The position numbers were made by a program, and so were the translations under genes. The notes below the pieces were generated by a model. It saw only the letters and a list, made by a program, of their open reading frames with translations. It searched no databases and had not been told where the DNA came from. Positions 18,117 to 54,918 of a stretch of 64,000 nucleotides of DNA are shown here, in pieces. The DNA is from Kiritimatiellia bacterium (GTDB lineage Bacteria; Verrucomicrobiota; Kiritimatiellia; RFP12; UBA1067), in contig JAFYDR010000194.1 in the NCBI GenBank assembly GCA_017544725.1, forward strand, positions 8,211-72,210, read 5' to 3'. Every line of letters starts with the position of its first letter. The first letter of the stretch is position 1.

Positions 18117-18450
18117 TTCGCTTCAAAGCCATTCAAGTTCCTCATCCGCAAGGCGGTCAAGGCAAGCCGCCCGACTCACTGACACCCACCACCTACGTCG
18201 CAGAGAAATCAAACAATGACATTGTATCACCTCCGAACAATTTTCTCAATGCGGATTTGGAGATGGGCGGTAAAGCCGCCAGCTGTTGCTTTTGCATTCT
18301 GTTCGCGGGCATATTATGTCCGTGCCCCTGCGACTTCAAACGCATATCCTTAAAAATTGCGAACCCCAGCGAACGATTTGACACGGTTCTCTGCCTTTTG
18401 CTAGAATGTAACCGTTTTTGTTTGCGAATGTCATTTGGAACAGTCATCTT

Positions 18451-21400
18451 ATGCAAAAGCGTATTTTCATTTTTTGTCTCGTATTGGCCCAAGTAACCTG
18501 TTGCCGGGCTGAAACCATTCTGGATGTCGCGAAACGCGACGGTAAAGGAATGATGGTCTATGCCTACGGGAGTGACTGGAGCGAGTCCGGGCGAACTGTC
18601 CATAAGCTCTTTCGTTCCGCCGCTTTCCAAAACGCAGTTTCATCTCGCTATGTGCTGGGCGAGGTTGATGTCCGTGACGTGCCGACACGAGAGAGCGAGG
18701 CGACCAATCGCTGGGCAGCACCGGGGAATCTGGAGTCTTTCCGGTTGCCAGCGTTGTTCCTTTGCGGAAAAGACGGGCGCGGGTTTCTTGCTTTGGAAAA
18801 TATTCCGATCACGGCAACCGCACCTTGGCTTCTCTCTCAAGTGGCGAAGGCGGAACGTATCAAGGGCGAGGCGGACAAGTTGATCGCACGCGCCAATCAA
18901 GCACAAGGTGTGGAAGCAGCAGAGAGGATTGGTGAGGCACTTTCGTTGTTGGAACCGTTGTTGGTTGATACAGACCGACTTCTTGGCAAAAAATGTCAAG
19001 GTACTCTCTTCGATCAGCTGAAGGCGCTCGATCCGAAGGACGCCACAGGATGGCAACGGCGTTTCACGATGGGGAATGGTGTTGGGCTGATTGCCGAGGT
19101 GAATGCGGCACGGGAGAAAAAGGATTTCAAAGGAGGCGAAAAAATCCTCGCAAGAGAGGCTGCCAAATGTGATCGACACCTGACGCTCAACCAGCGGCAA
19201 GCGGTCGCAATGCTTCCATTCTCTCTCTACCGAAAAGATGAGAAGCGTAAAAAGGAAAACATTCGACTGTTGGATCGTGTGGCCGCGATGGGGAGTGAGA
19301 CGTTGTGGGGTATGGCGGCTGTGGGATTCCTGCGTAGCCTGCAGGCACCGGAGGCGGAACGGTACATGAAGCCTATGCCCAAGCGGCAGATTTTACGAAC
19401 ACCGCGCATGACGGAAGACGCTTTTGGGGAACGAGGGATTGACCGTACTTTAGAGCATTACCTCAAAGTTCTAGATTGGGTGACTACGGAGGACTTGCCA
19501 CATCTATCTAAGACACAGCGCAAAGCACTTGTCTGTACATACATCCTGCTTTCGGCGGGAAAAGAGTCGATCAGTCGAATCAGTAAACGCGAGGGCGGGA
19601 AACAGTTTCTCAACGCGTTCCTTCAAGATATTTCTTGGATGGAGTCGTTCGCGGGTTCAGGGCCGTGGCATTATGGGGCGGCATCTGCACTGGATGCACT
19701 AGATCTCTTGGCGTGGAATGAGCCAGGCGTGTACACGAACGGATTCCAGAGGAAGGCGGCAACTGCGTTCTCCTTGAACTTCCCGATTGGAACAAACGAC
19801 GTATCCCCCGTACGGACGCAAGAGCGGTTGGCCAATCAGGCGAAAAAGAATGTCGGTACGGAGGTCTCGAACGAGGAGGCGATTGTTCGCACGCTTCAGA
19901 TTTTCACCGAGTTGTCGAAGGCGGGGCGGTTGCACGACAAGGTGTACGGACTCGACACCTACGAGTGGCGGTATCTCCTTTTCCCGTGGGACCGGAACGA
20001 TCCCGAGGATCTTTTGGCTCTGAATGCCTTTTGCAACACCTCTTACGACAAGACATTCCGGCTGGGGTGGAAAGTCCCGTATCGCCTGCGCAACTGTTTC
20101 GGGGAGTCGGTTCATCGACCTGAATACTACCAGCCGTGGATACACGCAAAAAGCCGTTATCTGGTGGGAACGGAAATCGGCGGCGTCTGCAACCTGATCT
20201 CCTCGTTCGCCGTGACGCTCGGTCATGCGCACGGTCTCATGGCGGTCACGGCGGGGCAACCGTATCACTGTGCGTTCGTTACCCGTCCAGAACGGGGCGG
20301 CGCGAAACAATGGCAGATCCGCTATTATATCCAGCCCTACACGATGGGACGCTGGGGCGTGTTCAAGTGGGGGCGTTACCAGAATCTTCTCGCGGCGGAA
20401 GATCTCTACGAGGGAACAACGTTGGCGGATCGCGAATACCCGCGCTGGCTTGCGGACGTGCGGCGTTTCCAGTCATCCGACGGTACGGGGGAAAAGTATC
20501 GGGAGGATATTGCGAACCTCTACCGGATCGCGATGGTGAAAGCGCACGGGAACTGGCCTGCCGGTCACGACTGGCAGGAGTACCTGCGGGCGAGTAAAGC
20601 ACCGGCAGAAGCGTGGAATGCATACGCCGACACCGTGCTGGAGACCACCTTTGATCGAATTCCGATCGTAAGCGAACTTCTGAAACCCTATCACGATACC
20701 TTGGCCGCCAGAGGAGATGAAAAGGCGTTGGACGAAGCGTTCAAGAAAATGTTTCGGACAATCCGTCTGAACGGGCGCAAGTTCCCGGAGATGCCGGATT
20801 ACCGGTACGTACTCAATCCGCTCGTTGAACGTTTCGGCAAAAAAGATCCGCACAGATTGTTCCGCCTGTTCGGGGAGGCACTGGCGGCGCACGACTCGAT
20901 GGAGGACGAGTTTTTCCAGCAGACACTCGCGTGGGGAGCGACACGTTACCTCCGCAGCAAGGAGTGGGAGACGCCTTTCATCAATCTCGTTTTGGCAACA
21001 TTAGAGCGGATGGATAGGGCCTCGTCAAAAGGAGGAAAACCGTCCGATGCAGGCAAATCGGTGTGGCGCAAGCAGATTACGGCGGCGGAGGAAGCAGGGG
21101 CGATGGAACGACGTGATAAGCTGCTGTCATTGTTCCGCCGCTTATACCCGCCGTCCCCGATTCCAAAAGCTCCGTCCTATCCGACGGAAGATTTCGGAGG
21201 AACGCTCATCTCGTCAAACGCCTGCGTTCAGCTTTCGAAGGTCGGCAGACTGGACTGTGCCGAAAGGCATTTGGAATTCTGCGACGCTTCGCCGTCGCGG
21301 GCTGATAAGGAGGGACCGCCCGTTAGCGCGGAAGTGGAAAAAGGAACACGCGGTGTCGTGTGGATCCGATTGCAGCTGGGAGGCGTTTCGGAGGTCTCCG

Positions 21401-21648
21401 GCATTCTGCTGGTCAACGCAAAAAAAACGAAACAGCGCAAGGGACAGTTGCCGTTGCGCGTGGAAGTGTCGGAGAACGGTTCGGATTGGAAGACAGTCGC
21501 CACGATTACGAAAGATGCCAATAGCTGGCGGGTTCCGCTCAGTCCGACAGAAAGTCGGGTGAAGTTCGTCCGCGCCGTGCGCGGGGGCGAAGGCGACGAA
21601 CCGTTACGCCTTCTGAAAATGCTGATCTATGGACGCAAGCTCTATTAA
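18451..21648 (+). CDS. Large secreted protein with a transglutaminase-like cysteine-protease core and a C-terminal F5/8 type C (discoidin) domain.
   Basis: Signal peptide MQKRIFIFCLVLAQVTCCRA. GGVCNLISSFAVTLGHAHGLMAVTAG fits the transglutaminase-like core pattern GxCxxxAxxFxxLxRxxG. The C-terminal roughly 150 aa resembles a discoidin/galactose-binding fold. Confidence 0.55.
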   Translation: MQKRIFIFCLVLAQVTCCRAETILDVAKRDGKGMMVYAYGSDWSESGRTVHKLFRSAAFQNAVSSRYVLGEVDVRDVPTRESEATNRWAAPGNLESFRLPALFLCGKDGRGFLALENIPITATAPWLLSQVAKAERIKGEADKLIARANQAQGVEAAERIGEALSLLEPLLVDTDRLLGKKCQGTLFDQLKALDPKDATGWQRRFTMGNGVGLIAEVNAAREKKDFKGGEKILAREAAKCDRHLTLNQRQAVAMLPFSLYRKDEKRKKENIRLLDRVAAMGSETLWGMAAVGFLRSLQAPEAERYMKPMPKRQILRTPRMTEDAFGERGIDRTLEHYLKVLDWVTTEDLPHLSKTQRKALVCTYILLSAGKESISRISKREGGKQFLNAFLQDISWMESFAGSGPWHYGAASALDALDLLAWNEPGVYTNGFQRKAATAFSLNFPIGTNDVSPVRTQERLANQAKKNVGTEVSNEEAIVRTLQIFTELSKAGRLHDKVYGLDTYEWRYLLFPWDRNDPEDLLALNAFCNTSYDKTFRLGWKVPYRLRNCFGESVHRPEYYQPWIHAKSRYLVGTEIGGVCNLISSFAVTLGHAHGLMAVTAGQPYHCAFVTRPERGGAKQWQIRYYIQPYTMGRWGVFKWGRYQNLLAAEDLYEGTTLADREYPRWLADVRRFQSSDGTGEKYREDIANLYRIAMVKAHGNWPAGHDWQEYLRASKAPAEAWNAYADTVLETTFDRIPIVSELLKPYHDTLAARGDEKALDEAFKKMFRTIRLNGRKFPEMPDYRYVLNPLVERFGKKDPHRLFRLFGEALAAHDSMEDEFFQQTLAWGATRYLRSKEWETPFINLVLATLERMDRASSKGGKPSDAGKSVWRKQITAAEEAGAMERRDKLLSLFRRLYPPSPIPKAPSYPTEDFGGTLISSNACVQLSKVGRLDCAERHLEFCDASPSRADKEGPPVSAEVEKGTRGVVWIRLQLGGVSEVSGILLVNAKKTKQRKGQLPLRVEVSENGSDWKTVATITKDANSWRVPLSPTESRVKFVRAVRGGEGDEPLRLLKMLIYGRKLY

Positions 21649-40433: not shown

Positions 40434-40508
40434 CGTTTCCCCCTTTCAAATAGAAACTGGGATTAGCGTACCAAGATTCCCCCATTCCGTCAATTCTGGA
40501 AAAAGGGG

Positions 40509-40615
40509 GGAGGCTGAGAAGCGGGGAGACTGAGAAGCTAGGGAAGAAGGCAGTAGGCAGTAGGGAATAGGGAGTAGGGAATTAGGGAGTAGAGAGTAGG
40601 GGGTGACGAGAGAAG
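40509..40615 (-). repeat. GCTGAGAAGC units plus an AGTAGGGAATAGGGAG tandem array, in reverse orientation.
   Basis: It is the reverse complement of modules found in the + orientation at 40740-40800. It lies upstream of the 37377-40433 gene. Confidence 0.65.
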
Positions 40616-40680
40616 GATGGATCATGGGAGCATTACCGTTGCCTAAACTTAACTCGCTTGCCCGGTCTAACACGCTTTAC

Positions 40681-40840
40681 CAGCTGGCGGCTCTGCCGCC
40701 CTTCATTCGTCACTGCCGCCTTAGCGGCTTGCCTCTCAGCTTCTCTGCTTCTCAGCTGGCGGCGTAGTCGCCCCTACTCCCTATTGCCTACTGCCTTCTT
40801 TTCATTCTTCATTTTTCTCTCTTCATTTTTCTCATCACTG
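40681..40840 (+). repeat. Mosaic repeat block (CAGCTGGCGGC, TTCATTCGTCACTGCCGCC, CTCAGCTTCTC, CCTATTGCCTACTGCC, CTTCATTTTTCTC array).
   Basis: Modules are shared with 12628-12832, 57816-57955 and 33184-33256 (in reverse complement). Confidence 0.7.
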
Positions 40841-40842
40841 CT

Positions 40843-42216
40843 TCAATGTGAGCGGGGAAGGTTCGAGAGAAAGCTTCGGGTTCGAACGAACCACATGGCG
40901 TGAGGGCCTGCGGAATTCGTGAGTGAGAAGATCAGGAAAACCACGGTTCCGACGAGTCGGAGGTAGGCCATTGGCGTGTCGTTCATCCCGGTGGGTAACG
41001 CAAAGACACAAAGCCAACAGAGGATGTACCACTCCGCTTGATACCGTCGTGCCACCTTGCGAAGGAGTAGCAGGAACGGAAGGGTTAAGAAGACATACTC
41101 GGCGGGTTGAACGACCGGACGGAGGAATACCATTGCGGGGAGTATCATCGGTGCCGCGTTGCGGAAGATGCCGACCCCATCCTTGCGGTTTTTCCAGACC
41201 TCCTTGCGTACCGCCACCACCACGTTGGCGACCAGCAACGCGAGAATCGCGAGCTTACATAGCACGATCAGCAGAACGGTGTTTCCCCAGTAGGCGGAGG
41301 TGAACCAGCGGACGCAGCTCTCGACAGAGCAGTTTGCATAGCAGACACCGCCTTGCGTACATTCCACAGGTAGCTTGCGCACAAAGCAGGAGAACCAACT
41401 GCCGTGGCGGATGAGGGAGAGGATGATCATGGAAAGCGCGATTCCGCCTGCCCAGTACACGTAGAGGCGCAACCATTTCTTTTCGCGAATCCACAGAACG
41501 GGAATCAGGAGGATTTGTGCCGTCACCTGAAAGCACAACGTGAGTGCGAGCGGAATCGGCGCGAACACGTGTTTTGCCTTGGGATAACGCAACAGAAAAA
41601 GTAAGACGAGATCGAGGGCGACGATGTTTTCGGATGACGAGCGGATACAGGCTGCCAGCGGTTCATTGAGCGCGATGAAAAGAAACGCGAAAACGGCGGA
41701 GATAAATTCGCCTTGCCAATATTGGTCGAGTACCTCCGAGAGAATGAAGAAGAGAGCCATGACGGCAACGATGACCAAGAACCACTGCAGACAGGGAGTC
41801 CAGAGTGCTTCCTGTGTGGCACACAGCAGGAAATCGGAGGGGCGAAAGACAACGGCGCAGAGTGAGAGAAAGGCCATCGGATAGGTGAAACAATACTTGT
41901 TGCGATTCCCGCGACGCCGCATCCGATAGCAGATGATACCAGCCGCCCCCCACAAGGTGACGCACGGAAGATACACGGAGAAGAGTGCGTGGCGCGACAG
42001 GAAACCATCGGGAAGGAAAGGTAGCCACTGGTGTATTTTGCCCAACCAGGCTATCACACCGACCGCAAGAGCTGCCACCAGGAGCGCAATGGTGATACCG
42101 AACCACCAAAACCAAACGATGTCCCAGCGGTCATCCAACGCATCCGAACGGCGCGTCGATTCAATCCGCTGTTGGCGTTGGGCTCTCTTTTGTTTCTTCG
42201 ACAACAAGTTATTCAC
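40843..42216 (-). CDS. Polytopic integral membrane protein (about 11-13 TM), possibly a glycosyltransferase or mannosyltransferase-like protein.
   Basis: 457 aa, overwhelmingly hydrophobic, with a basic N-terminal cytoplasmic tail. No soluble domain is present. The function is not assignable from the sequence. Confidence 0.55.
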   Translation of the reverse strand: MNNLLSKKQKRAQRQQRIESTRRSDALDDRWDIVWFWWFGITIALLVAALAVGVIAWLGKIHQWLPFLPDGFLSRHALFSVYLPCVTLWGAAGIICYRMRRRGNRNKYCFTYPMAFLSLCAVVFRPSDFLLCATQEALWTPCLQWFLVIVAVMALFFILSEVLDQYWQGEFISAVFAFLFIALNEPLAACIRSSSENIVALDLVLLFLLRYPKAKHVFAPIPLALTLCFQVTAQILLIPVLWIREKKWLRLYVYWAGGIALSMIILSLIRHGSWFSCFVRKLPVECTQGGVCYANCSVESCVRWFTSAYWGNTVLLIVLCKLAILALLVANVVVAVRKEVWKNRKDGVGIFRNAAPMILPAMVFLRPVVQPAEYVFLTLPFLLLLRKVARRYQAEWYILCWLCVFALPTGMNDTPMAYLRLVGTVVFLIFSLTNSAGPHAMWFVRTRSFLSNLPRSH

Positions 42217-43600: not shown

Positions 43601-45685
43601 CTACCGCACCTTGCCTTCCTTCTTCCGCTTCTCGATGATCTTCTCGGTGAGTTCGAACGGAACACCCTCATAGTGGGCGAAGATCATCGTGTAGGTGCCG
43701 CGTCCCTGCGTGAGCGTACGGATCGTGTTGGAATAACCGAACATCTCGCTCAGCGGAACCATGCCGTGGACGAGCTTCGAGCCCCCCTTGTCCTCCATGC
43801 CCTCAACGCGACCGCGACGCTGGCAGAGAGAACCGGTTGCGGCACCCATCTGGTCCGGCGGAACGGAGACTTCCACGTTCATCATCGGCTCCAGCAACTG
43901 CGGATTGCCGCGCAGGAAGAGCTGCTTGAAACACTGCCGCGCACATTCGATGAAGGCGAACTCGTTGGAGTCCACTTCGTGATACGATCCGAAGTAAACC
44001 GTCACCTTCACATCGACCACCGGGTATCCAGCGTAAGGACCAGACTCCATCGCGCGGATGACGCCCTTCTCGACTGCGGGAATGTACTCGTTGGGAATTA
44101 CACCGCCCTTGACCTCGTTGACAAAGGAGAATCCCATGCCCGGATCCTGCGGTTCCAAACGCAAACAGACGTGCGCATACTGTCCGCGACCACCCGTCTG
44201 CTTGACATGCTTGTACTCGCCCTCCGACTTCATGCGGATAGTCTCGCGGTAGGCGACTTCCGGCGCACCGACCGTACAGGCAACGTTAAACTCGCGCTTC
44301 AGACGATCTACAATAATCTGTAGGTGCAACTCGCCCATTCCGGAAATGACAGTCTCGCTGGTCTCTTGATCGAACTTGACGACGAACGTCGGGTCTTCTT
44401 GCGCCAATGCGTAGAGAGCGTTGCCCAACTTCTCATTCTCGCCGCGAGATTCCGGTTTGATCGAGACGGAGATGACGGGCGCAGGGAAGTCGATCGACTC
44501 CAGCGTAATCGGATGGGCACGGTCGCAAAGCGTATCACCCGTGCGGGTGCGCGTCAGACCGACGACCGCCACAATGTCGCCCGCGTATGCCTCTTCCAGC
44601 GCTTCCTGCCGGTTCGCATGCATCCGGAAGAGACGCCCGATACGGGCGGACTGCTTCATGGTGCTGTTGTACACTTCCTCGCCGAGCTTCAACACGCCTG
44701 AATAGACGCGGACATAGGTGAGTTTGCCCATGTGCTTGTCGGAAACGATCTTGAACGCGAGACCGCAGAACGGCTCATTGTCATCCGGCTTGCGAATCTT
44801 ATCGGGATCGTCCGCCGAAACCACGTCACCGATGTCCAACGGCGACGGCAGGTAGTCGCAAACCGCGTCGAGCATCGGCTGGATGCCCTTGTCCTTGAAT
44901 GCCGAACCACAGTAGGCAGGCACGAGCTTACGTGCGATTGTTCCCTTGCGGATCGCGCCCTTGATTTCCTCAATCGTCAGTTCCTCGCCGCCGAGATACT
45001 TCTCCAACAAGGCGTCGTCCTGCTCGGCAGCCTTCTCCACCAACTCGTGGCGCAACTGCTTGCACTTTTCACGAAGGTGTTCGGGAATTTCCTCCATGAT
45101 CTCGGTCTTGCCGAGTGTCTTCATGTCGAACTTGATCGCCTTCATCGTCAGCAGATCGACGATTCCTTCGAAATTCTCCTCCGCACCGATCGGGCAAACC
45201 ATCGCTACCGGGTTGCCGCCCAACACGTTCTTGATGCCTTCCAGCACGGCAAAGAAGTCTGCGCCGATACGGTCCATCTTGTTGACCATCGCAATCTTCG
45301 GCACGTTGTACTTCTCGGACTGGCGCCAAACCTGTTCGGACTGCGGCTGTACGCCACCCACTGCGCAGAACAACGCCACAGCACCGTCCAACACACGCAA
45401 GGAACGCTCCACCTCCGCCGTGAAGTCCACGTGTCCCGGGGTGTCGATCAAGCTGATTCGGTACGATTTCCAATCGACGGTTGTCGCGGCGGACATGATG
45501 GTGATGCCACGTTCCTGTTCCTGCACCATGGAGTCCATCGTGGCCGCGCCGTCATGGACCTCGCCAATTTTGTGGATTTTTCCGCTATAAAAGAGAATGC
45601 GCTCACTCGTGGTCGTCTTTCCCGCGTCAATGTGCGCCATAATACCGATATTACGGACTTTTTCCAGAGCAACTGTTCTGGGCAT
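43601..45685 (-). CDS. fusA: Elongation factor G
   Basis: G-domain motifs [17 protein letters not shown] and NKMD, all five EF-G domains, and 694 aa. Confidence 0.95.
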
Positions 45686-45893
45686 AATCGGACTCCTTCA
45701 ATTACTTTTCGATTCCCTTCCGGCACAAGCCGACAGGGTACACTCCTATCGTGAGGTGAAAAAAGACTCAATAGTATGTACTTTTTAAATAGGTAATTCA
45801 AGAGCAAAATAAGGAAAATTGCAAAAGTGAAGAAAATGGGAGCGCGTAGGGGTAGCTAAGTAGCCAACGAAATGATGTGTGACGATAACAAAA

Positions 45894-45938
45894 CAGCCCC
45901 TCGCGCCGTGCACGGAAATATTCATGGGGATAACTTTC
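45894..45938 (+). repeat. E-module copy (CAGCCCCTCGCGCCGTGCACGGAAATATTCATGGGGATAACTTTC).
   Basis: Matches the 49741 and 49943 copies. Confidence 0.65.
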
Positions 45939-46145
45939 AAAGCAATTGCATCCCCCTGATATATCTCGCACAAAGTTCACGAAGTTCCGCTTTAAAAATT
46001 TCTTTGCAGACCTTATGTGGGACAGACAAGCAGGTTTTGCAACAGGCTCTTTCGACAAGCCCCCAAGGGGCGAAAGTTAATGCTTATTTAGGGCTTCCAT
46101 AACTTTGCAATCGCAAATCCTGTCGGTTTCGCCGTCAGCCAGTTA

Positions 46146-46191
46146 GGCATGATAAGCTGGTGAAGCGTGTTAAGCTAGGCAACGGGGACGT
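46146..46191 (+). repeat. About 50-nt module ending in the 24-nt hairpin element GGCAACGGGGACGTTGCCCCTCCC.
   Basis: GCTGGTGAAGCGTGTTAAGCTAGGCAACGG.. matches 7681-7726. Confidence 0.7.
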
Positions 46192-46261
46192 TGCCCCTCC
46201 CGTTTTCATTCGTCATTGCCGCCACAAGGCTGTGCATCATTCTTTATTCCGAACAAAGTGA

Positions 46262-46285
46262 GGCAACGAGGACGTTGCCCCTCCC
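46262..46285 (+). repeat. 24-nt hairpin element GGCAACGAGGACGTTGCCCCTCCC (a second copy in the same gap).
   Basis: Exact match to the 7703 and 50041 copies. Confidence 0.75.
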
Positions 46286-46321
46286 CATTCTCTGCGGTCT
46301 CATGCGAACCTCTGCGCCTCT

Positions 46322-46375
46322 GCGTGAAATTTCTCTCGTCATTCGTCATTGCTTCGCAAAGCGAAGTTATAGGCC
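46322..46375 (+). repeat. TCTCGTCATTCGTCATTG module plus the GCTTCGCAAAGCGAAG hairpin plus the GTTATAGGCC (D) module.
   Basis: Shares units with 50170-50222, 54919-54945 and 57940-57955. Confidence 0.6.
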
Positions 46376-46437
46376 AAGAACTCTGCTTTTCTTCTTTCCC
46401 GTTTTTTGTTATAATTTTCCTTTCTGGGACGGATGGT

Positions 46438-49400
46438 ATGAATCGTATTTGTTTTCTGGTTTCGTGGATCGTATGCTTGGTGGCAGGGGCGGGAATCTGT
46501 GAAGAGGTTTCCGCTGACTTGGCGTGTCTTGCGGCGAGCAACTGGCTGGATACGGATGCCAGTCCGTTGCCTCATTCTGTATCCCAAAGGGAGATTGCGG
46601 CAGTTCACCCGATTTCCGATGAAACAGGAGAGATCTTGTTTTACGCGCTGGATTTGACCGGTGGCGGTTTTCTCGTTGTGTCGGCGGATACCTCGATTAC
46701 ACCGATTATGGCTTGTTCTGACACTGGCGCATGGGATACCGATGGGGAGAATCCGTTGTGCGTATTCCTCACAGCGGACCTCACATCTCGGCGGGATGCA
46801 ATTCGCCGAAAACAGATTCTTTCTTACGGTATTTGCAGCGAATCGAGCTTGTCCAGCGGCAGAAGTGCGGAAGAGAAATGGGAAGCGTTGTTGCAGACTC
46901 CCGCCGCCGCAATTCGGAAACGTTCGATACCGGAGAGTATGTCGCTTGTCGATATCCGTGTTCCTCCGTTGATCCAGTCGCGCTGGGGACAGAGCAACTG
47001 GCGCGATCCGAACACGCAACAACTCCGTCCGACATTCAACTACTACACGCCGAACCGGTACCTGTGCGGTTGTGTCGCAACTGCGTTTGCACAGGTGATG
47101 CGATATTGGTGTGAACCGAAACGTACGGTCGTCCCTGGCTCTTACTTCTGCTGGGTGGATGGTGTCTTGACGAAAAAGACGATGATTGGAGGTCGGTACG
47201 ATTGGGAAAAGATGCCGCTGACACGAGTGGAATGTACAGACGAGGAACAGCGTGAAGCAATCGGGAAATTATTGTTCGATCTGGGAGTCGCAAGCCGGAT
47301 GCAATGGACGAAACGCGAGTCGATCACCTATTCCCGCAAGGCTGGAATCTCTCTGCGCAACCGTTTCGGGTACGCCTCTGCCTGTATGTTTTACTCTGGA
47401 ATTCGTATGCAGAATCTTGCAGGGGTCTGTCGTGACGCCATCCTTGCCAGTCTCGACGCGGGGATGCCCGTTGTGATCGGTATTCAGCGCGGGGCTGTTG
47501 GTCACGCGGTGGTTGTGGATGGATACGGATACAACGGTAGCGATACGATTTATTGCCACATCAATTTCGGTTATTCGGGAACTTCAGACGCATGGTACAA
47601 CCTCGTCGGGGAAAATGTGACATCGGAGAACTACACGCAAATCTCCGATGTTATTTACAACATCCATCCGTCGCTTGCCGGGGATGTCTTCTCCGGTCGT
47701 GTGCTCAACTCCTTTGGGGAACCAGTCGCGGATGCGGAAGTGCGTCTGGTTCCCCCCTCTGGCGCGGTGATGTCCACGCGCTCCAACGAAAACGGAATCT
47801 ATGCGTTTCACGTGACGAAGACCGGAGACTACACGATCTCCGCCGTCAGTGGAGCGCTGTCGTCGGGCGGACAACGAATTTCCTTTCCCGCCCGTAGCAC
47901 CAACTCGACGTTACAGGAAACAGACACGACGATTGACGCGGGGGGAAGTCCCGGAAGTGTCGCCAATCGATGGGGAATCGATCTGACGTTGCGCGCCTCA
48001 CAGGTCACGTTGCAAAAGGCATTAGGTGCGAGCGGTCTGGTATTCTCCAGCGGCGGAAACGCCGCATGGTCAGGAATTGTTGCCGACACGCGAACGGGAC
48101 GGACCGCCGCGCAGAGTGGTGCCGTCGCCAATAATCAATCCTCTTGGTTGCGTACCACGGTGGTCGGTCCCGGCGTTCTCTCCTTCCGTTGGCGCATTTC
48201 CTCCGAAAAGAAGTACGACAAGTTGACATTCAAGGTGGACAACCAAACGATTGCGACGATTTCGGGTGACACGGAATGGACGACGGTTTCTAGATACATC
48301 CCGCCCGGTGTCCACACGGTACAGTGGACATACGCAAAGGACAAGAGCCTCGGTTTGGAAAAGGATTGCGCGTGGATTGAAAGTCTTGCGTGGAAAGAAA
48401 CGCTTCCTGCGACGCCTGGATCATTCCGGTTCGTGTCCAGGGGAGGCTCCGGAACGGTTTCCGTTTCCGAGAATTCCGGCACACGCTGGCGGGTGACATC
48501 CGCGACCGAGTGGATTGTACCTCAAACAACGGGAGGGACAGGAAGCGGAACGTTTGTGGTCAAAGTGGCGAAAAACGACACGGACACAACGCGAACCGGG
48601 CAACTCCGTGTTGCGGCGACAACAGAACGTGGGGAGAAGGAAACGACGATTTCCATCACGCAGATTCCTGTACCTCAACTTGTCGTCTCCAATACATCCG
48701 TTTCCATATCCGCGAAAAACGGAAGGTATGAAACCACAGTCGAGGCAAATCAATCGTGGTCGGCTTCCGCAGATGTTCCGTGGATCACGTTGGCGAGGAG
48801 TTCGGGGAAAGAGGACGAACATGACCTCGTTTATCAGGTGGAGGCCAATCGGATGCCATCTGTGCGAGAGGGACGGATCACCGTGACGATCGGATGTGCC
48901 TCGGAGACATTGCGTAAAACTGTGGTTGTTCGGCAACGCGGCGCGTCGAAAGCGGATGGATTGTGGCTACCGACGGGTGCGCTCCGTCCAAAGAAAACAA
49001 CCGAATGGCATGGTAAAATTTTCAACGGCGATACAACGATCGCGCTTCTGCAAGTTCGTGCGAAGAAGACTAATGCGAAAGGACTCGTAACGATTTCCGC
49101 GAAGGCTACGCGCTCGGACGGCAAGAAATTTCTCGCGAAGGCGATTTCGGTGAAGGCAACGGACTCGCCTCGCCTCATCCAGTTAACGCTTAAAAAATGG
49201 GGAACAATCGTCCTGTACCTCGGGGCTAATGGCATGGTCGGGACGTTTGGAAACGATTGGGTGGAATCCGCAAAGAGAGGCGGTTCACTCCGCCGTACCC
49301 CTGCCACTTTCACGGCTGGTAGGGTGACGACGCTAAACGGAATTCCTCCGTTGATCGACTGCCTTCCGGATGGCGCGACGATACGAACCAGCGGTACTCG

Positions 49401-49704
49401 CTGGACATTCGAGAAAAACGCCTCGATCAAATACAAGAAGATCAAGGAGAAAGGAAGCTCCGCCATTCGCTACGAGCTACAAGGAATCAATGACCCCTCG
49501 CATCCGAACGTGACTTGCCTCAAGCTGAGCTACCAATCAAAATACGGTACATTCAGCGGGAGCTTCAAACTTTACACCGTGGAGAAGAACCTCCTAAAAC
49601 GTTGGACTTTCCGGGTCACGGGTGTCGTTGCCGACGGCATAGGTTCAGGCGTGGCCACCTGCAAGAACTCCTCCCCCAATAAAATTGCCGTGCGCATCGA
49701 ATAG
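46438..49704 (+). CDS. Large (1088 aa) secreted C10-family (streptopain/SpeB-like) cysteine peptidase with a carboxypeptidase-regulatory-like domain and multiple BACON/Ig-like repeats.
   Basis: Signal peptide MNRICFLVSWIVCLVAGAG. YLCGCVATAFAQVMRYW matches the SpeB catalytic-Cys motif CVATAxAQxMxY. GHAVVVDGYGY is the catalytic His strand. FSGRVLNSFGEPVADAEVRLV is a CarbopepD_reg-like domain. There are repeated ..RVAATT..ITQ and ..RITVTIG.. BACON-like units. Confidence 0.8.
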   Translation: MNRICFLVSWIVCLVAGAGICEEVSADLACLAASNWLDTDASPLPHSVSQREIAAVHPISDETGEILFYALDLTGGGFLVVSADTSITPIMACSDTGAWDTDGENPLCVFLTADLTSRRDAIRRKQILSYGICSESSLSSGRSAEEKWEALLQTPAAAIRKRSIPESMSLVDIRVPPLIQSRWGQSNWRDPNTQQLRPTFNYYTPNRYLCGCVATAFAQVMRYWCEPKRTVVPGSYFCWVDGVLTKKTMIGGRYDWEKMPLTRVECTDEEQREAIGKLLFDLGVASRMQWTKRESITYSRKAGISLRNRFGYASACMFYSGIRMQNLAGVCRDAILASLDAGMPVVIGIQRGAVGHAVVVDGYGYNGSDTIYCHINFGYSGTSDAWYNLVGENVTSENYTQISDVIYNIHPSLAGDVFSGRVLNSFGEPVADAEVRLVPPSGAVMSTRSNENGIYAFHVTKTGDYTISAVSGALSSGGQRISFPARSTNSTLQETDTTIDAGGSPGSVANRWGIDLTLRASQVTLQKALGASGLVFSSGGNAAWSGIVADTRTGRTAAQSGAVANNQSSWLRTTVVGPGVLSFRWRISSEKKYDKLTFKVDNQTIATISGDTEWTTVSRYIPPGVHTVQWTYAKDKSLGLEKDCAWIESLAWKETLPATPGSFRFVSRGGSGTVSVSENSGTRWRVTSATEWIVPQTTGGTGSGTFVVKVAKNDTDTTRTGQLRVAATTERGEKETTISITQIPVPQLVVSNTSVSISAKNGRYETTVEANQSWSASADVPWITLARSSGKEDEHDLVYQVEANRMPSVREGRITVTIGCASETLRKTVVVRQRGASKADGLWLPTGALRPKKTTEWHGKIFNGDTTIALLQVRAKKTNAKGLVTISAKATRSDGKKFLAKAISVKATDSPRLIQLTLKKWGTIVLYLGANGMVGTFGNDWVESAKRGGSLRRTPATFTAGRVTTLNGIPPLIDCLPDGATIRTSGTRWTFEKNASIKYKKIKEKGSSAIRYELQGINDPSHPNVTCLKLSYQSKYGTFSGSFKLYTVEKNLLKRWTFRVTGVVADGIGSGVATCKNSSPNKIAVRIE

Positions 49705-49707
49705 CGG

Positions 49708-49732
49708 TATAACTTCGCGCGGCGAAGTTATA
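49708..49732. terminator. Perfect palindrome TATAACTTCGC-GCG-GCGAAGTTATA four nt after the peptidase stop. It is part of the GAAGTTATAGGCAAG (D) module.
   Basis: Self-complementary, read from the sequence. A D-module with the E-module follows at 49724-49786 and again at 49926-49987. Confidence 0.45.
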
Positions 49733-49740
49733 GGCAAGCG

Positions 49741-49786
49741 CCTCGCCCGCGCCGCGCGCGGGAACGTTCATGGGGAATAACTTTCA
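49741..49786 (+). repeat. E-module copy (CCTCGCCCGCGCCGCGCGCGGGAACGTTCATGGGGAATAACTTTC).
   Basis: There is a tandem second copy at 49943-49987 with 200-bp periodicity. The intervening 49838-49925 block is a TCGTCAT/CTCAGC/GC-hairpin module. Confidence 0.7.
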
Positions 49787-50040
49787 GTTTCGACGACGAG
49801 GACATCGGCGTTACGCAGCGGACGCGACGGAGCGCGTCTCTCCCATCCGTCACTGCAACCTCTGGTTGCTTACTTCTCAGCCTCTCAGCTTCCCCGCTTT
49901 TCAGCAGGGCGGCTTCGCCGCCCTGCGAAGTTATAGGCAAGCGCCCCGCCCGCGCCGCGCGCGGGAACGTTCATAGGAATAACTTTCGACAAGCCCCGAA
50001 GGACTAAACGGTCACGACAAGCGCACCCCTCCCCATTTCA

Positions 50041-50064
50041 GGCAACGAGGACGTTGCCCCTCCC
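50041..50064 (+). repeat. 24-nt hairpin element GGCAACGAGGACGTTGCCCCTCCC.
   Basis: Exact copy. Confidence 0.75.
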
Positions 50065-50330
50065 GTTCGTGGGTAAGTGCCGCTAGGTGGTTAAGTGTCC
50101 CTGCGGGACTAAGGGGTGATGCCCCACTTAGAGCCGAAGGCTCACTTAGGGCGAAGCCCACTTAATTCCATCTCTCGTCACTCGTCATTGCCGCCATCGG
50201 CGGCATCTTCATTCATCATTTTCCTTGCGTGGGGCGTTTATGCCACACTATAATCTTTCCGTTCTTGAGGGCGTGTGCCATTGAGATGATGTGTCGCAAA
50301 AGGGGTTGCAATTGTTACCAAGGTGAGTCT

Positions 50331-52637
50331 ATGAAGATGATGAAACGAATCGCGTTGTCGCTGGTTGCAATGCTATCGATATGGATTGTCGGTTGCATCG
50401 GACCGGGCGGCAACGTTGCGCTAGACACGGCGAAGCCGTTGCGCGTGGCGGTGTTCGTGGGTGACGGCGCGCGTAACATTGGCGTATTCCGTTGGGTCGA
50501 GATCGCGACGATGGCGGAGAACGTCGTCGCTACGCCTGTAGATGGCGCGGCAGTGAGAGCGGGTGCGCTGGATACGATGGACGTCCTTATCATGCCGGGC
50601 GGGAGTGGACACGATGAAGGAGTGAACCTCGGAGCAGATGGGCGCGAACGCGTCAAGTCATTCGTGCGTGGAGGCGGCGGCTATATCGGCACATGCGCTG
50701 GATTCTACCTTGTCACGGAACCGATTCCCACGAATCCGAAGCGCAAGGACTACCTCGGACTTATCCCGTTCAAGGACACGATCGATGGCGGAAACGGCAG
50801 GGCAGAGGTCAATTTCGAGTTCAACGAAAAGGCGGAGAAGCTGGCCGGGATCAAGAAGGGCAAACACAAGATTCAATACAGCCACGGTCCTGTTGCGATC
50901 CGCTCGCAGAAAGCGGTGGAGGGGACTCGAGCAGAGGTGCTTGCGACGTATGCATGTGATTATAACCCGAGTCGTTTTCTGCGACCCTCGAAGGCGGGGC
51001 ATGTCGCTGTTGTCGCCGCTGAGTGCGGGAAGGGGAGAGTGTTCGCGTTCACCTGCCATCCCGAAAGTGATGTCGATGACCACACGTGCATCGAGGGCGC
51101 GTTCCGCTATGTGACGGGCAGGGAGATCCGCTGGCGTTATCCGCAGCGGAAGCGTGGGCAACTCGCCATCGGGTTCTTGTGCGACGACTCGTTCGGGGTT
51201 GAGACCGCACGCCTCGTTCAGCGTCTTCTCCGCGAACACGAGTTTGACATCGTGCCGATGAACACGGGACTCATAAGCGAAGGTGCGCTCCAGCATCTCG
51301 ATGCGGTTCTCGCTCCTGCAAACGAAGGCAAGGCGGATTCCAAGATTGGACTGTACGGTGAGAACGAGGAGCGGACAAAGGCGTTCCTCGCTCGTGGTGG
51401 ACGTGTTGTCGCGTGGGGTAATGCAGCAGAACGAGTGAAGGTTCGCGGATTGGATGGTGCAGTTTGCGTGGCGGATGCGGATGCTGCGCTTGCGAATCTT
51501 CGGGCATTCGCCGCAGAGTCGGTTCTGTTGGACAAGCAGAAGCTTGTTCCTCCCCAAAAAGTTGAAAGCCCTGTGAAAATTGCGGTTTTCGCGGGCGATG
51601 GTTGCGCGATGGGAAACATTCCGCAACTGCTTGAGTTCTCGCCTGAATACATGGTTGACATAGTTGGCGCGGATGGGGTCGCGTCGGGAGTACTCAAGGG
51701 TTACGACGCGATCTACATGCCCGGCGGCTATTCTGCGATTGCCTATCAGACGCTTGGTGAGGGCGGTCGCAAGGCACTCGTCGATTACATCCGTGGAGGC
51801 GGCAAGTACTACGGCGTATGCGGCGGTTCCTTCCTCGTCTCGCAAACGAAGATGACGCCTGGCAAGGCAGGGCAGGTTCCCGGCGACACTCCGTTCCTGA
51901 GCCTTGTTCCCTATAAAAATGACAATCCGCAACATTACCGTGGTAAAGCCCCCGTGCGCATACGTCTGACGGACGAAGGAAAGGCGATCTTTCCCGAATC
52001 CCACACGAATCGCGTGGTGTGGTACGCCGGCGGTCCCGTGTTCGTTGGTGCGAACAAAGTGGATGATTCCGACATCAAGGTGTTCGCGGAATACAACAGC
52101 CATGTTATCAGTACGCTCGACCCCAAATCGACGCCGGACATGATCGGCAAGGCGGCGATTGTAGGCGGACGCGTCGGCAAGGGCAAGCTGTTCGCTCAAT
52201 GCCCGCATCCGGAACGCCACGAGTGTACGTTCGACATGGTGCGTGACGCCTTTAAATGGCTTGCGGGTGCGCGTCCCACGGGAACGCTTCCGACGCGCAT
52301 ACGCGGGGCCAAGTCCGTCTTTGTCAAGATGGGATACAGGCAGGGCATAGATGTCGCCGTTCCGTTCGTCCTCAAGACGCTTCTTCACGATCGACGTTTC
52401 GACTGTCGTATTAGCAATGTCATGGACAACAACGAGCTGGCGCATTCGGATGCCGTCATCCTGTGCCTGTTCGATAAGAACAGTTGGACTCCGCAACTGA
52501 AGGAATTCGCTGCGAATGGAGGTCAGGTCATCTGTGTGGCCGAAACCGAGGACAAGCGGAAGATTGCCGAGAAGTTCGACGGTGCGACCGTTGTCGATTC
52601 CTACAACCATGTAATCGAGGAGATGCTGAAGAAATGA
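50331..52637 (+). CDS. Lipoprotein with two class-I glutamine-amidotransferase-like (GATase1/ThuA/BPL_N-like) domains. Paralog 1.
   Basis: Lipobox LSIWIVGC. Each half has a GxCAG nucleophile-elbow motif (YIGTCAGFYL, YYGVCGGSFL) and an HPE motif (FTCHPESD, QCPHPERHE), the Cys-His-Glu signature of class I GATases. Each domain is followed by a roughly 150-aa Rossmann-like segment. Confidence 0.75.
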   Translation: MKMMKRIALSLVAMLSIWIVGCIGPGGNVALDTAKPLRVAVFVGDGARNIGVFRWVEIATMAENVVATPVDGAAVRAGALDTMDVLIMPGGSGHDEGVNLGADGRERVKSFVRGGGGYIGTCAGFYLVTEPIPTNPKRKDYLGLIPFKDTIDGGNGRAEVNFEFNEKAEKLAGIKKGKHKIQYSHGPVAIRSQKAVEGTRAEVLATYACDYNPSRFLRPSKAGHVAVVAAECGKGRVFAFTCHPESDVDDHTCIEGAFRYVTGREIRWRYPQRKRGQLAIGFLCDDSFGVETARLVQRLLREHEFDIVPMNTGLISEGALQHLDAVLAPANEGKADSKIGLYGENEERTKAFLARGGRVVAWGNAAERVKVRGLDGAVCVADADAALANLRAFAAESVLLDKQKLVPPQKVESPVKIAVFAGDGCAMGNIPQLLEFSPEYMVDIVGADGVASGVLKGYDAIYMPGGYSAIAYQTLGEGGRKALVDYIRGGGKYYGVCGGSFLVSQTKMTPGKAGQVPGDTPFLSLVPYKNDNPQHYRGKAPVRIRLTDEGKAIFPESHTNRVVWYAGGPVFVGANKVDDSDIKVFAEYNSHVISTLDPKSTPDMIGKAAIVGGRVGKGKLFAQCPHPERHECTFDMVRDAFKWLAGARPTGTLPTRIRGAKSVFVKMGYRQGIDVAVPFVLKTLLHDRRFDCRISNVMDNNELAHSDAVILCLFDKNSWTPQLKEFAANGGQVICVAETEDKRKIAEKFDGATVVDSYNHVIEEMLKK

Positions 52638-54859
52638 AAAAAGCTGTCATTGTTGTCGCGATGTTTCCGCTGTTTATTGGAACCGTCGCAACTGGCGTGG
52701 AGAAATCTGTATCGGCGGAAGCAGAGAAGCCGCTACGGATAGCGGTTTACGTGGATAAGGGTGCCCGCAACATGGGCGTGTTCCGCTGGATTGAACTGAC
52801 GACATTGGCTGGAGGCGCGAAGTCCTTGCCGGTGGATGGTGCGGCGATACGGGCAGGTGCGCTGGATACGGCGGACATCCTTGTCATGCCGGGCGGATCG
52901 TCTGTCGATGAGGCAAAGTCGCTCGGGGCAGAGGGACGTGAGAAAATCCGCGCGTTTGTGAAGGGGGGCGGTGGCTACATCGGTACATGCGCGGGGTGTT
53001 GCCTCCTCATGCAACCGTCAAAGGGACATCCGGATATGATCCACATGATCCCGTTCCGGTTCGGTGTGGGCGGAGGGAGGGCGGATCTCTCAATCGCGTT
53101 TAATCGTCGTGCGACGGAACTCGCGGGAATCCGGAAGGGTACGGCGACGATTCGCTATTCGCACGGACCGGTACCGATTCCGTCGCTTCCGGTAAAAGAT
53201 GCGGAAGTGGAGGTCGTGGCGACTTACAACAGCGACATCAACACGACTAGCGGTAAGGATCGTACGTCTATGGCTGGACAAGCTGCCGCCATCGCGGGGA
53301 CTTACGGGAAGGGACGGCTCTTTGTTTTCGCGGTACATCCCGAAAGCGACAAGGCTGATCACCACATTCTGAAAGGCGCGTTCCGTTACGTGTCGGGACG
53401 TTCGCTCGACTGGGATTTCCCGCAACGGAAACGTGGACAACTCACCGTTGGTGTCATGTGCGATGATTCGTTCGGCGTGAGAACCGCACGGCTTCTTCAA
53501 CGGCTGATCACGGATGGTGAATTTGACGTTGTGCCGCTGAACGCGGCGGCGATCGAAGAAGGTGCTCTGCGGCATATCGATGCGATTCTCGCTCCGGGCG
53601 ATGCAGAGGCGGTAGATTTGAGAAAGGGGTTCTACGGCGAAAATGTCCAACGCACGAAGGAGTTTCTTGTGCGTGGCGGACGGGTTTTCGCATGGGGATA
53701 TGCGGCGGATGCGGCGGAAAAGCGTGAAATGGGATTTTCGCGTGTGGCGGACGGCGAGGCTGCGATTGCGGCGTTGCGTACGTTCGTTGCGGAACCGCCG
53801 TCCAAACCGATTCCAGTACCGCAAAAAGTTGCGAAGCCGATTCGCGTGGGCGTGTATCTGGACAAAGGCGGCAGCAACCTCTCGATCGCGCGAGCACTGA
53901 AGCTCTCGCCCGAATACGAAGTGACGTTCTTGAACGCGGCAGACTATGCAAACGGTGGACTGGACGGTCTCGATGTAATCCTCCAGCCTGGCGGTAGCTG
54001 TAAGGCACAGTATGAAATGATGGGACCGAATGGTGTGGAAGCACTTAGGAGATTCGTGCTGGACGGTGGCAAGTACTACGGCGTTTGCGCGGGGGCATTC
54101 ATGGCACTCCAGATTTCGCGTAACGACTGGCCGCGATTGGGGCTTATCCCGTTCAAGGGGGACGATCCCAGCCACTACCGTGGTGGTGCGCCGATCAAGA
54201 TCGCGCTTACGGATGAAGGGAAGAAGGTGTTTGAAGGATCTCCGAAAGAACGTATCGTTCTCTATTTCGGCGGACCTGCGGCCATTCCGGGAACCCCCGT
54301 GGAGGATACGGATGTGAAAGTCCTTGCTCACTATGCCGGACGCATCATCAACGCATGCCAGCCTGATCCTGTCGAAGAGATGGTGGGCAAGGCCGCGTTC
54401 TTGGGTGGCAGGGTCGGGAAGGGAAAGGTGTTTGTTTCCTGTCCGCATCCAGAGACGGAAGAGGCGACTTTCGATCTCGTGAGAAGCGGGATCAAGTTCC
54501 TGACAGGCGTTGCGCCTACACCAGTGTACCTCGACAGAGTGCGCGGTGCGGTGACGATCCGGTATCGGGTGTCGGACAAAAAGTCGGCACAGTTCCAGAT
54601 TGACACACTCATCTGGGACAGGCGCATCGATCTCTGTCCGGGCAAGGACTGGATTGATTTGTCGCACATTGACGCGATTGTGCAGACGGGTGAGGTGACC
54701 GATGCGGACGCGCAGATGCTGAACCGTTTTGTCGGAAAGGGCGGCAGGGTTGTCGCGTTGTGTGATACGGAGGAGAAACGCCAAGCGGCCGCAAAGCTAA
54801 AGGGGACCATCGTGGTGGAAAAATACGCCGACATCATCGACGCGATTGTTCGCAAATAA
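52634..54859 (+). CDS. Lipoprotein with two class-I glutamine-amidotransferase-like domains. Paralog 2; the gene is a tandem duplicate.
   Basis: About 55-65% identical to paralog 1 along its whole length (KPLRIAVYVDKGARNMGVFRWIEL.., GGGYIGTCAGCCL, AVHPESDK, YYGVCAGAFM, SCPHPETEE). Its ATG overlaps the upstream TGA (ATGA). Confidence 0.75.
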   Translation: MKKAVIVVAMFPLFIGTVATGVEKSVSAEAEKPLRIAVYVDKGARNMGVFRWIELTTLAGGAKSLPVDGAAIRAGALDTADILVMPGGSSVDEAKSLGAEGREKIRAFVKGGGGYIGTCAGCCLLMQPSKGHPDMIHMIPFRFGVGGGRADLSIAFNRRATELAGIRKGTATIRYSHGPVPIPSLPVKDAEVEVVATYNSDINTTSGKDRTSMAGQAAAIAGTYGKGRLFVFAVHPESDKADHHILKGAFRYVSGRSLDWDFPQRKRGQLTVGVMCDDSFGVRTARLLQRLITDGEFDVVPLNAAAIEEGALRHIDAILAPGDAEAVDLRKGFYGENVQRTKEFLVRGGRVFAWGYAADAAEKREMGFSRVADGEAAIAALRTFVAEPPSKPIPVPQKVAKPIRVGVYLDKGGSNLSIARALKLSPEYEVTFLNAADYANGGLDGLDVILQPGGSCKAQYEMMGPNGVEALRRFVLDGGKYYGVCAGAFMALQISRNDWPRLGLIPFKGDDPSHYRGGAPIKIALTDEGKKVFEGSPKERIVLYFGGPAAIPGTPVEDTDVKVLAHYAGRIINACQPDPVEEMVGKAAFLGGRVGKGKVFVSCPHPETEEATFDLVRSGIKFLTGVAPTPVYLDRVRGAVTIRYRVSDKKSAQFQIDTLIWDRRIDLCPGKDWIDLSHIDAIVQTGEVTDADAQMLNRFVGKGGRVVALCDTEEKRQAAAKLKGTIVVEKYADIIDAIVRK

Positions 54860-54918
54860 TGCTGGCGATACCTCGTGTCATTCGATCGCAATCGATAGCC
54901 ATCGGTATAGGCGATATG

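Follow-up and report, generated by a model that had tools for sequence, protein, structure and literature searches.

The gene at positions 46438–49704 (+ strand) of a 64,000-nucleotide stretch of contig JAFYDR010000194.1, the whole of which we call the window, encodes a 1088-residue protein that is probably best explained as a secreted, vertically inherited zymogen of peptidase family C10, held at the cell surface by its C-terminal domain (CTD). We have high confidence that the gene is chromosomal and vertically inherited and that its product is a C10 zymogen. Retention of the protein at the surface by the CTD appears to us about as likely as not, and we only tentatively regard residues 835–1088 as an undescribed, lineage-specific domain that gut Kiritimatiellia and Lentisphaerae would use for surface display or sorting, and which would be approximately 240 aa long, cationic and all-beta. 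The open reading frame (ORF) spans 46216..49704; translation from its first ATG (46438) gives the 1088 residues (N-terminal sequence MNRICFLVSWIVCLVAGAGIC), and the stop codon is at 49702–49704. The protein is 100% identical across 1088 residues to GenBank MBR4171527.1, titled 'MAG: C10 family peptidase [Kiritimatiellae bacterium]' (MAG, metagenome-assembled genome). The protease assignment is already public, and the protein is an added member of an annotated family. Searches of the literature turned up no account of C10 peptidases from Kiritimatiellae. The database identity places the host in Kiritimatiellae, and thus in the Planctomycetes–Verrucomicrobia–Chlamydiae (PVC) group, as had been suspected in an earlier reading made from the letters of the window (the sequence-only reading).

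The CTD (48940..49701, + strand; 254 aa) is basic and all-beta, with a pI of 10.3 and a net charge of about +26. An exhaustive HMMER search with residues 835–1088 retrieved 875 cluster representatives at E ≤ 1e-3, 365 of which were also found at E ≤ 1e-10. The domain ended 12 or fewer residues from the protein C-terminus in 152 of 154 well-aligned cases, with a tail consensus of W-x-V-T-V-[E/K/R]. Its median pI was 9.7 and its median net charge +15, and the N-terminal remainder of the proteins had a median pI of 4.6. When 72 CTD proteins were examined for their N-terminal partners, we found BspA-type leucine-rich repeats (BspA-LRR, 28 proteins), Flg_new (24), LRR_8 (12), M12 (reprolysin-like) metalloproteases (10), and C10 (4), with GLUG, MBG, and CARDB also present and no glycoside hydrolase domain in any of the 72. 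The CTD also terminated 23 of the 120 best C10 relatives.

The N-termini of the CTD proteins are classical signal peptides devoid of a lipobox, so that anchoring, if any, would come from the C-terminal side. The C10 protein itself has a predicted Sec signal peptide (46438..46515, + strand; approximately residues 1–26), read by eye as MNR, a hydrophobic core, and VSA|D. Since its lipobox, AGIC in the same by-eye reading, is atypical, processing by signal peptidase I appears more likely than lipoprotein processing; the relatives carry clear A-x-A type signals.

To locate the domain in genomes, we scanned a single genome of each species with sequence patterns, which yielded 44 loci. Nearly all of them were in Kiritimatiellia/Kiritimatiellae, Lentisphaerae or 'Verrucomicrobia' MAGs, the CTD-bearing MAGs came from rumen, goat, yak, cattle, and horse gut, and some genomes contained at least 5–7 loci. 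One further observation concerns L039 (CAVGIZ010000081.1, an 'Anaerovoracaceae bacterium' bin), where positions 6001–6306 encode a CTD fragment corresponding to query residues 140–254 at 36% identity; the presence of this fragment in a bin of a Firmicutes family reflects either bin contamination or transfer out of the PVC group.

Residues 835–1088 gave no match to Pfam or NCBIfam at E ≤ 1 and none to PDB sequences, and no description of the domain was found in literature searches. A word-indexed search with the C-terminal 304 aa also gave no match, missing even the 94%-identical relative P0001, and the same type of search with a 9-sequence CTD profile returned only 2 proteins. The 875 representatives retrieved with HMMER show that the word-indexed null reflects a limit of the index.

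AlphaFold2 produced an unusable model of the CTD from a 3-sequence alignment (predicted local distance difference test score, pLDDT, 45), whereas an 18-sequence alignment gave an all-beta model of 18 strands with a pLDDT of 91.6 and a predicted template modelling (TM) score of 0.84. The model consists of two halves, the N-terminal one of which is duplicated in some proteins. Foldseek found no match to it in the PDB at E ≤ 1e-3. The membrane barrels heading the Foldseek list failed to superpose (TM 0.11–0.16), and the mildly suggestive partial matches, to small soluble up-and-down barrels and to the 'handle plus barrel' proteins HphA and TbpB, had probabilities of 0.16–0.77 and TM scores of 0.2–0.47.

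Several known types of domain were considered for the CTD and rejected. An autotransporter or intimin/invasin beta-barrel does not fit, as the EspP and invasin barrels gave TM scores of 0.11–0.16 with root-mean-square deviations of >20 Å, Pfam gave no autotransporter match, the net charge is +15, and the terminal residue is E, K or R. A sorting domain of the type IX secretion system (T9SS; Por) was rejected on the lack of any Pfam or NCBIfam match at E ≤ 1 and on the identity of the host, Kiritimatiellae; no T9SS is known from PVC bacteria. The possibility of a fused staphostatin-like (lipocalin-type) inhibitor was rejected since the CTD also ends LRR and Flg_new adhesins and metalloproteases.

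From its position, charge, copy number, and partner repertoire we infer that the CTD is a lineage-specific surface-retention or sorting module. As a cationic domain, it would bind an anionic polymer of the envelope, either lipopolysaccharide (LPS) or an acidic or sulfated exopolysaccharide; alternatively, it would engage a lineage-specific sorting step. The window encodes a 3-deoxy-D-manno-oct-2-ulosonic acid (Kdo) transferase, and LPS is therefore expected in the host. Cultured Kiritimatiellae are reported to make sulfated glycosaminoglycan-like exopolymers (PMC7356697). Both the Kdo transferase with its implied LPS and the sulfated exopolymers fit an electrostatic anchor.

The sole recurrent neighbours of the CTD genes in the 44 loci were polysaccharide-synthesis genes, which were seen in five or more loci and encode a Bac_transf initiating sugar transferase, an ABC-2 exporter component, a GDP-mannose dehydratase, and RmlD. 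Loci of this type are L004 (6796–9913), L008 (6720–9758), L045 (335–2591 and 6842–7609), L007 (7872–10467), L009 (2838–5430), and L018 (11527–12384). The adjacency may indicate a link to surface polysaccharide, or it may be orthologous synteny only. A HEAT-repeat protein also recurs downstream of CTD genes.

Some points weigh against the proposed anchor, or against parts of it. Two proteins, P0143 (residues 29–270 of 499) and P0208 (residues 34–285 of 516), have the CTD close to their N-terminus, and members of the P0159 family consist of a signal peptide and the CTD alone; these N-terminal and stand-alone occurrences suit a domain that binds by itself better than a sorting signal tied strictly to the C-terminus. 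The role suggested for the CTD is a prediction from architecture and charge, the signal peptide was read by eye, and the activity, activation, and localization of the C10 protein are likewise predicted. The BACON domains that precede the CTD may, as is reported for BoGH5A, be spacers and not binding modules. As a separate observation, the region following the CTD in P0143 resembles, by eye, the Fibrobacter succinogenes major paralogous domain.

It is also conceivable, if unlikely, that the CTD serves chiefly as a signal for translocation across the outer membrane by a dedicated lineage-specific secretion machine and not as a passive anchor, in which case it would resemble the C-terminal domain of T9SS proteins or the beta-barrel at the C-terminus of cargo of the Slam/type XI secretion system (T11SS), a cargo type that combines a handle with an 8-stranded barrel, and would maybe be removed after export. 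The almost exclusively extreme C-terminal position with its conserved terminal motif, the multiple copies per genome behind N-terminal parts that are unrelated to one another, and the restricted lineage range would all be expected of such a signal. The weak Foldseek likeness to HphA, TbpB, and small up-and-down barrels (probability 0.3–0.77, TM 0.2–0.47) points in the same direction, but these fold matches are not significant, and in the comparison with Slam/T11SS cargo HphA and TbpB were weak matches only (probability 0.16–0.38, TM 0.21–0.27). Moreover, with approximately 240 aa and a net charge of +15 the CTD far exceeds the known sorting domains in size and charge, the N-terminal and stand-alone copies do not suit a translocation signal, and no conserved transporter neighbour was seen in the 44 loci, where only the polysaccharide-synthesis genes recur.

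The strongly basic character of the CTD could also be taken to mean that it is a lectin-like module for anionic or sulfated glycans (mucin, glycosaminoglycans), which would bring a freely secreted protease, and the adhesins, onto host or dietary glycoproteins and not onto the cell's own surface. We consider this quite improbable. Carbohydrate-binding modules usually accompany glycoside hydrolases, sulfatases, and lyases, and such domains were present in 0 of the 72 CTD proteins. Carbohydrate-binding modules are, in addition, not normally limited to the last residues of a protein, and the CTD is not similar to any Pfam carbohydrate-binding family. What speaks for substrate targeting, besides the charge and the abundance of GH123, DUF4838, and GH127 glycoside hydrolases in the window and in its relatives, is that the CTD adjoins BACON domains, that a stand-alone protein of signal peptide plus CTD exists, and that degradation of sulfated polysaccharides is reported for cultured representatives of the class (PMC6388578). 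Retention of the protein at the surface by the CTD remains our preferred explanation; the sequence-only reading had likewise proposed a surface-anchored protease, and that proposal stands as the best one, on the basis of a domain which that reading had not seen.

The sequence-only reading had further suggested, from the repeats around it, that the gene was acquired horizontally. The composition of the gene does not bear this out: its GC content is 0.546, its GC at third codon positions (GC3) 0.604, and its codon chi-square per degree of freedom 1.94, against means of 0.565, 0.668, and 1.66 in the 34 other genes of the window (z = −0.9, −1.1, and +0.5, respectively). A tRNA scan of the window was empty, and the 21 window proteins scanned included neither an integrase nor a transposase. 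The core genes of the window encode PNPase, a LeuA-like protein, topoisomerase subunits, UvrD, PheS, EF-G, proB/proA-like products, prephenate dehydrogenase (PDH), a polyprenyl synthase, the Kdo transferase, and a sigma-54 activator, with the glycoside hydrolases GH123 and DUF4838 interspersed among them.

Synteny was examined in loci of related genomes. In L048 the C10 gene (82% nucleotide identity) is followed by the same BPL_N-like lipoprotein gene as in the window, the two neighbours being 79% identical at the amino acid and 77% at the nucleotide level. L001 is a closer relative, with 92.4% nucleotide identity in the C10 gene, but its match to the window is confined to 46370–49708; next come a GH127 gene and, inverted relative to the window, the genes for PDH and polyprenyl synthase (90.9% nucleotide identity), still less than 10 kb from C10. 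The divergence of C10 in L001 and L048 is about equal to, or slightly less than, that of the housekeeping neighbours. An inverted repeat (GGTATTTCCACATTTCCACAATTTCACA... and its reverse complement, at positions 1–40 and about 3930–3985 of L001) brackets the C10 gene in that locus; the contig ends exactly in one repeat copy, which suggests that the assembly broke at the repeat.

A recently acquired island bounded by repeat fields would account for the fact that homology to L001 stops within approximately 70 bp of each gene end, with different neighbours beyond, and for the inverted repeat on both sides of the L001 copy, and C10 genes of Bacteroides fragilis are known on mobile elements (PMC2873492). 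We nevertheless find this explanation very improbable. The more distant L048 keeps the order of C10 and the BPL_N-like gene, the divergence of C10 is close to that of the housekeeping genes beside it, and the repeat motifs of its flanks recur in no fewer than 12 further gaps of the window. Since C10 and PDH are both still within 10 kb in L001, the arrangement there is either a local rearrangement at repeat-bearing gaps or an assembly break at repeats. Thus, an island is not supported by composition, mobility genes, tRNA or site absence, and on codon usage and synteny, the checks that had been proposed for the island, the gene behaves like the genes around it.

The upstream gap between the divergent EF-G and C10 genes (45686..46437, 752 bp) and the downstream gap (49705..50330, 626 bp, with the next gene start taken as ATG 50331) agree in length with the earlier estimates of approximately 750 and 625 bp. 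They had also been described as repeat-saturated and as the longest repeat fields, and neither description holds. Only 19% of the bases of the upstream gap (140) and 23% of those of the downstream gap (144) lie in 12-mers with at least three copies; such 12-mers cover 10.7% of intergenic and 0.8% of coding bases in the whole window, and other gaps reach 21%, 27%, and 35%. The last value belongs to the gap at 40434–40842 (145 repeat bases), and three gaps (1010, 831, and 762 bp) are longer than both C10 flanks. GGCAACGAGGACGTTGCCCCTCCC has 6 copies in the window (3510, 7703, 16092, 46178, 46262, and 50041), TCTCGTCATTCGTCATTGC has 9 copies across it, and the GCGAAGTTATAGGC...GGGAACGTTCATGGGGATAACTTTC unit is found again near 54917 and 55215. 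The flank repeats are genome-wide intergenic elements and not island borders.

Conservation of the upstream gap in relatives is limited to its last approximately 68 bp (46370–46437), homology to L001, L002, and L048 beginning at 46370–46384. The downstream gap contains two approximately 60-bp direct repeat copies (49716–49774 and 49919–49977), further dispersed motifs and, immediately 3' of the C10 stop codon, a hairpin (TATAACTTCGCGCGGCGAAGTTATA). The scan for promoters and terminators gave no signal above shuffled expectation, and the Rfam scan was empty.

The assignment of the protein to the streptopain family (C10) of cysteine peptidases agrees with the sequence-only reading. The predicted papain-like Peptidase_C10 catalytic domain (residues 199–387; 47032..47598, + strand) matched Pfam PF01640 with 133.2 bits (cut-off 26) over profile positions 6–194 of 194. 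A search of PDB sequences matched SpeB of Streptococcus pyogenes and interpain A of Prevotella intermedia at E~1e-12 with both catalytic residues aligned: query CGCVATAFAQ stands opposite TGCVATATAQ of SpeB, which holds the catalytic Cys, and query VGHAVVVDG opposite GGHAFVIDG. The putative catalytic residues are Cys212 (codon 47071–47073, + strand) and His356 (codon 47503–47505, + strand), and the two motifs noted previously, CGCVATAFAQVMRYW and GHAVVVDGYGY, begin at residues 210 and 355, respectively. C212 and H356 were invariant in 121 of 121 catalytic domains (the query and its 120 best relatives), as were G211, W183, D361-G362-Y363-G364, H374, and W386.

The sequence-only reading overlooked the Inhibitor_I69 (Spi-type) pro-domain (residues 23–106; 46504..46755, + strand; Pfam PF13734, 35.8 bits, cut-off 25), the residues of which also align weakly with the pro-region of the SpeB zymogen. 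By this sequence criterion the protein is a SpeB-type zymogen. The earlier remark that no staphostatin-like inhibitor gene is adjacent was correct, as no small inhibitor gene is contiguous with C10 and the gaps hold only repeat-laden short ORFs; this is not an anomaly, since the I69/Spi-type pro-domain would inhibit in cis and a separate inhibitor gene would not be needed. On the SpeB/interpain paradigm, the protein would be exported through Sec as an inactive zymogen, with its active site blocked by the pro-domain until this is removed near residues 165–175, either by the enzyme itself or by another protease. A catalytically dead pseudo-protease with a role as an adhesin only, to which the long adhesin-like non-catalytic part and the replacement of the Trp-x-Trp segment of SpeB, NWGWGG, by NFGYSG might point, can be dismissed almost entirely, since Cys212, His356, and many of the active-site surroundings are intact and invariant across the family and an inhibitory pro-domain, pointless for an inactive enzyme, has been kept.

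The part between the catalytic domain and the CTD is made up of different modules. Approximately 650 aa of beta-sandwich repeats had been described here; beta-sandwich modules are indeed present, and Pfam supports the CarboxypepD_reg and BACON domains named at the time, but the region comprises a single CarboxypepD_reg, a linker of 49 aa, a module of approximately 120 aa, two BACON domains, and the distinct CTD. The CarboxypepD_reg domain, a prealbumin-like beta-sandwich (residues 419–477; 47692..47868, + strand), is a marginal match to Pfam PF13620 (33.2 bits, cut-off 32.3) and is recorded in nearly all family members. The BACON domains (Pfam PF13004, cut-off 25), at residues 656–745 (48403..48672, + strand; 38.9 bits) and 746–834 (48673..48939, + strand; 33.3 bits), each exceed the cut-off by themselves.

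The family-specific, beta-rich module of approximately 120 aa (residues 530–655; 48025..48402, + strand) was defined from the alignment of relatives and has no Pfam model. It comes after CarboxypepD_reg in most relatives, occurs in 2–4 tandem copies in some (P0003, P0021, P0022, P0023, P0026, and P0087), and has nearly invariant Trp, His, and Gly positions in the family alignment. Its Pfam matches were weak (Big_7, CE2_N, and Laminin_G_3, E~0.006–0.008), and the sole match in a profile search of the PDB was the C-terminal domain of the Vibrio protease VesC, also weak (E = 0.024). It is probably another beta-sandwich. CarboxypepD_reg, this module, and the two BACON domains would, from the architecture, form a stalk of approximately 400 residues projecting the protease head outward, and at the cell surface the head would cut host, dietary or microbial (glyco)proteins.

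A multi-domain C10 protein of 1088 aa is nothing exceptional. The homologue search showed more than 1100 relatives at E ≤ 1e-5, and most of the best 120 share a core of I69, C10, and CarboxypepD_reg, are 600–1900 aa long, and have variable tails (Flg_new, BspA-type LRR, CARDB, PPC, FN3, BACON or extra 120-aa modules). A handful bear the name 'C10 family peptidase' and come from Kiritimatiellae or Planctomycetota. The full-length arrangement of two BACON domains followed by the CTD was found, among the best 120, only in the closest relatives, P0001 and P0002. A whole-protein scan of genome contigs gave no match, and one of metagenome contigs only one distant relative (23% identity). Many C10 members of 600–690 aa end in a hydrophobic ..LLLL[D/E/N] tail right after the 120-aa module (P0029, P0038, P0040, P0044, P0051, P0061, P0068, P0071, P0076, P0078, P0089, P0091, P0100, and P0115), and this tail looks like a C-terminal sorting signal other than the CTD.

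The PVC multi-domain I69-C10-CarboxypepD_reg peptidases, which have the same core and mostly the same 120-aa module, are thus the group of which the protein is a direct member. SpeB, interpain A, and MEROPS family C10 in general share with it the catalytic domain with the Cys/His dyad (GCVATA, GHA-V-DG), and SpeB and interpain A are likewise secreted and have the same N-terminal I69-type pro-region, implying zymogen activation. Sequence identity to these two is nevertheless low; they are ~40-kDa zymogens of pathogens with little or nothing after the catalytic domain, whereas the protein described here adds approximately 680 residues and belongs to a PVC gut commensal. The Bacteroides proteases Bfp1–4 and BtpA/B/C/Z (PMC2873492, PMC3462683) are also C10 proteases of gut commensals and predicted to be exported. 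Bacteroides fragilis has four C10 genes; two of them share a transcript with a gene for a staphostatin-like inhibitor, and two are on mobile elements (PMC2873492), whereas the present gene has no adjacent small gene, is predicted to be inhibited in cis by its pro-domain, and shows no sign of mobility.

With regard to the CTD, the counterparts that would be alike in outline are the T9SS C-terminal domains, LPXTG/sortase signals, and GW modules, each a shared C-terminal module with many copies per genome, which fill the same slot on BspA-LRR, Flg_new, and protease proteins in other phyla. There is, however, no sequence similarity or confident fold similarity to any of them. The T9SS C-terminal domain has approximately 70–100 aa, and the CTD, at ~240 aa, is about three times that size and highly cationic.

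The genes next to C10 offer no operon partner, as the sequence-only reading had noted: the upstream EF-G gene (43601–45685) is on the opposite strand and divergent, and the downstream gene, for a BPL_N-like lipoprotein of 768 aa, is on the same strand but 626 bp away, so that a shared operon is unlikely. The most plausible start of the latter is ATG 50331, which gives an N-terminus (MKMMKRIALSLVAMLSIWIVGC) with a lipoprotein-type signal. The ORFs at 50331–52637 and 52484–54859 (+ strand) are tandem paralogues of approximately 770–790 aa with several segments resembling BPL_N/class-I glutamine amidotransferases (ThuA/DJ-1-like). Four large ORFs of 717, 664, 1076, and 457 aa, at 1217–3370 (+), 16122–18116 (−), 18418–21648 (+), and 40843–42216 (−), respectively, had no Pfam match at the thresholds used. 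Several families of repeats of 19–60 bp, partly palindromic, occur in most intergenic gaps of the window (3510, 6565, 7622, 7703, 12783, 16092, 21672, 24336, 33181, 46178–46352, 49713–50191, 54917, 55215, and 57816); the corresponding gaps in relatives cannot be aligned, are made of other short repeats, and contain at least one synteny breakpoint.

The C10 protease by itself adds little, since C10 peptidases whose Ig-like tails are long are common in PVC bacteria; the useful outcomes here are that the island reading was wrong and that the missing inhibitor gene is explained by a pro-domain acting in cis. The new element is the CTD, an undescribed and widespread domain that ends hundreds of adhesin- and protease-type proteins in the lineage. 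Kiritimatiellae and Lentisphaerae are abundant, mostly uncultured glycan degraders of rumen and gut, and surface protein display has hardly been described in them. A basic module shared by BspA-like adhesins and M12 and C10 proteases would allow their surface proteome to be predicted from sequence, and would provide a discrete domain for studies of binding to envelope polymers and an entry point to any dedicated sorting machinery. If the proposed role is correct, the CTD would represent a new form of electrostatic retention on a diderm surface, by LPS or an acidic or sulfated exopolymer; alternatively, it would be the cargo tag of an unrecognized PVC secretion route.

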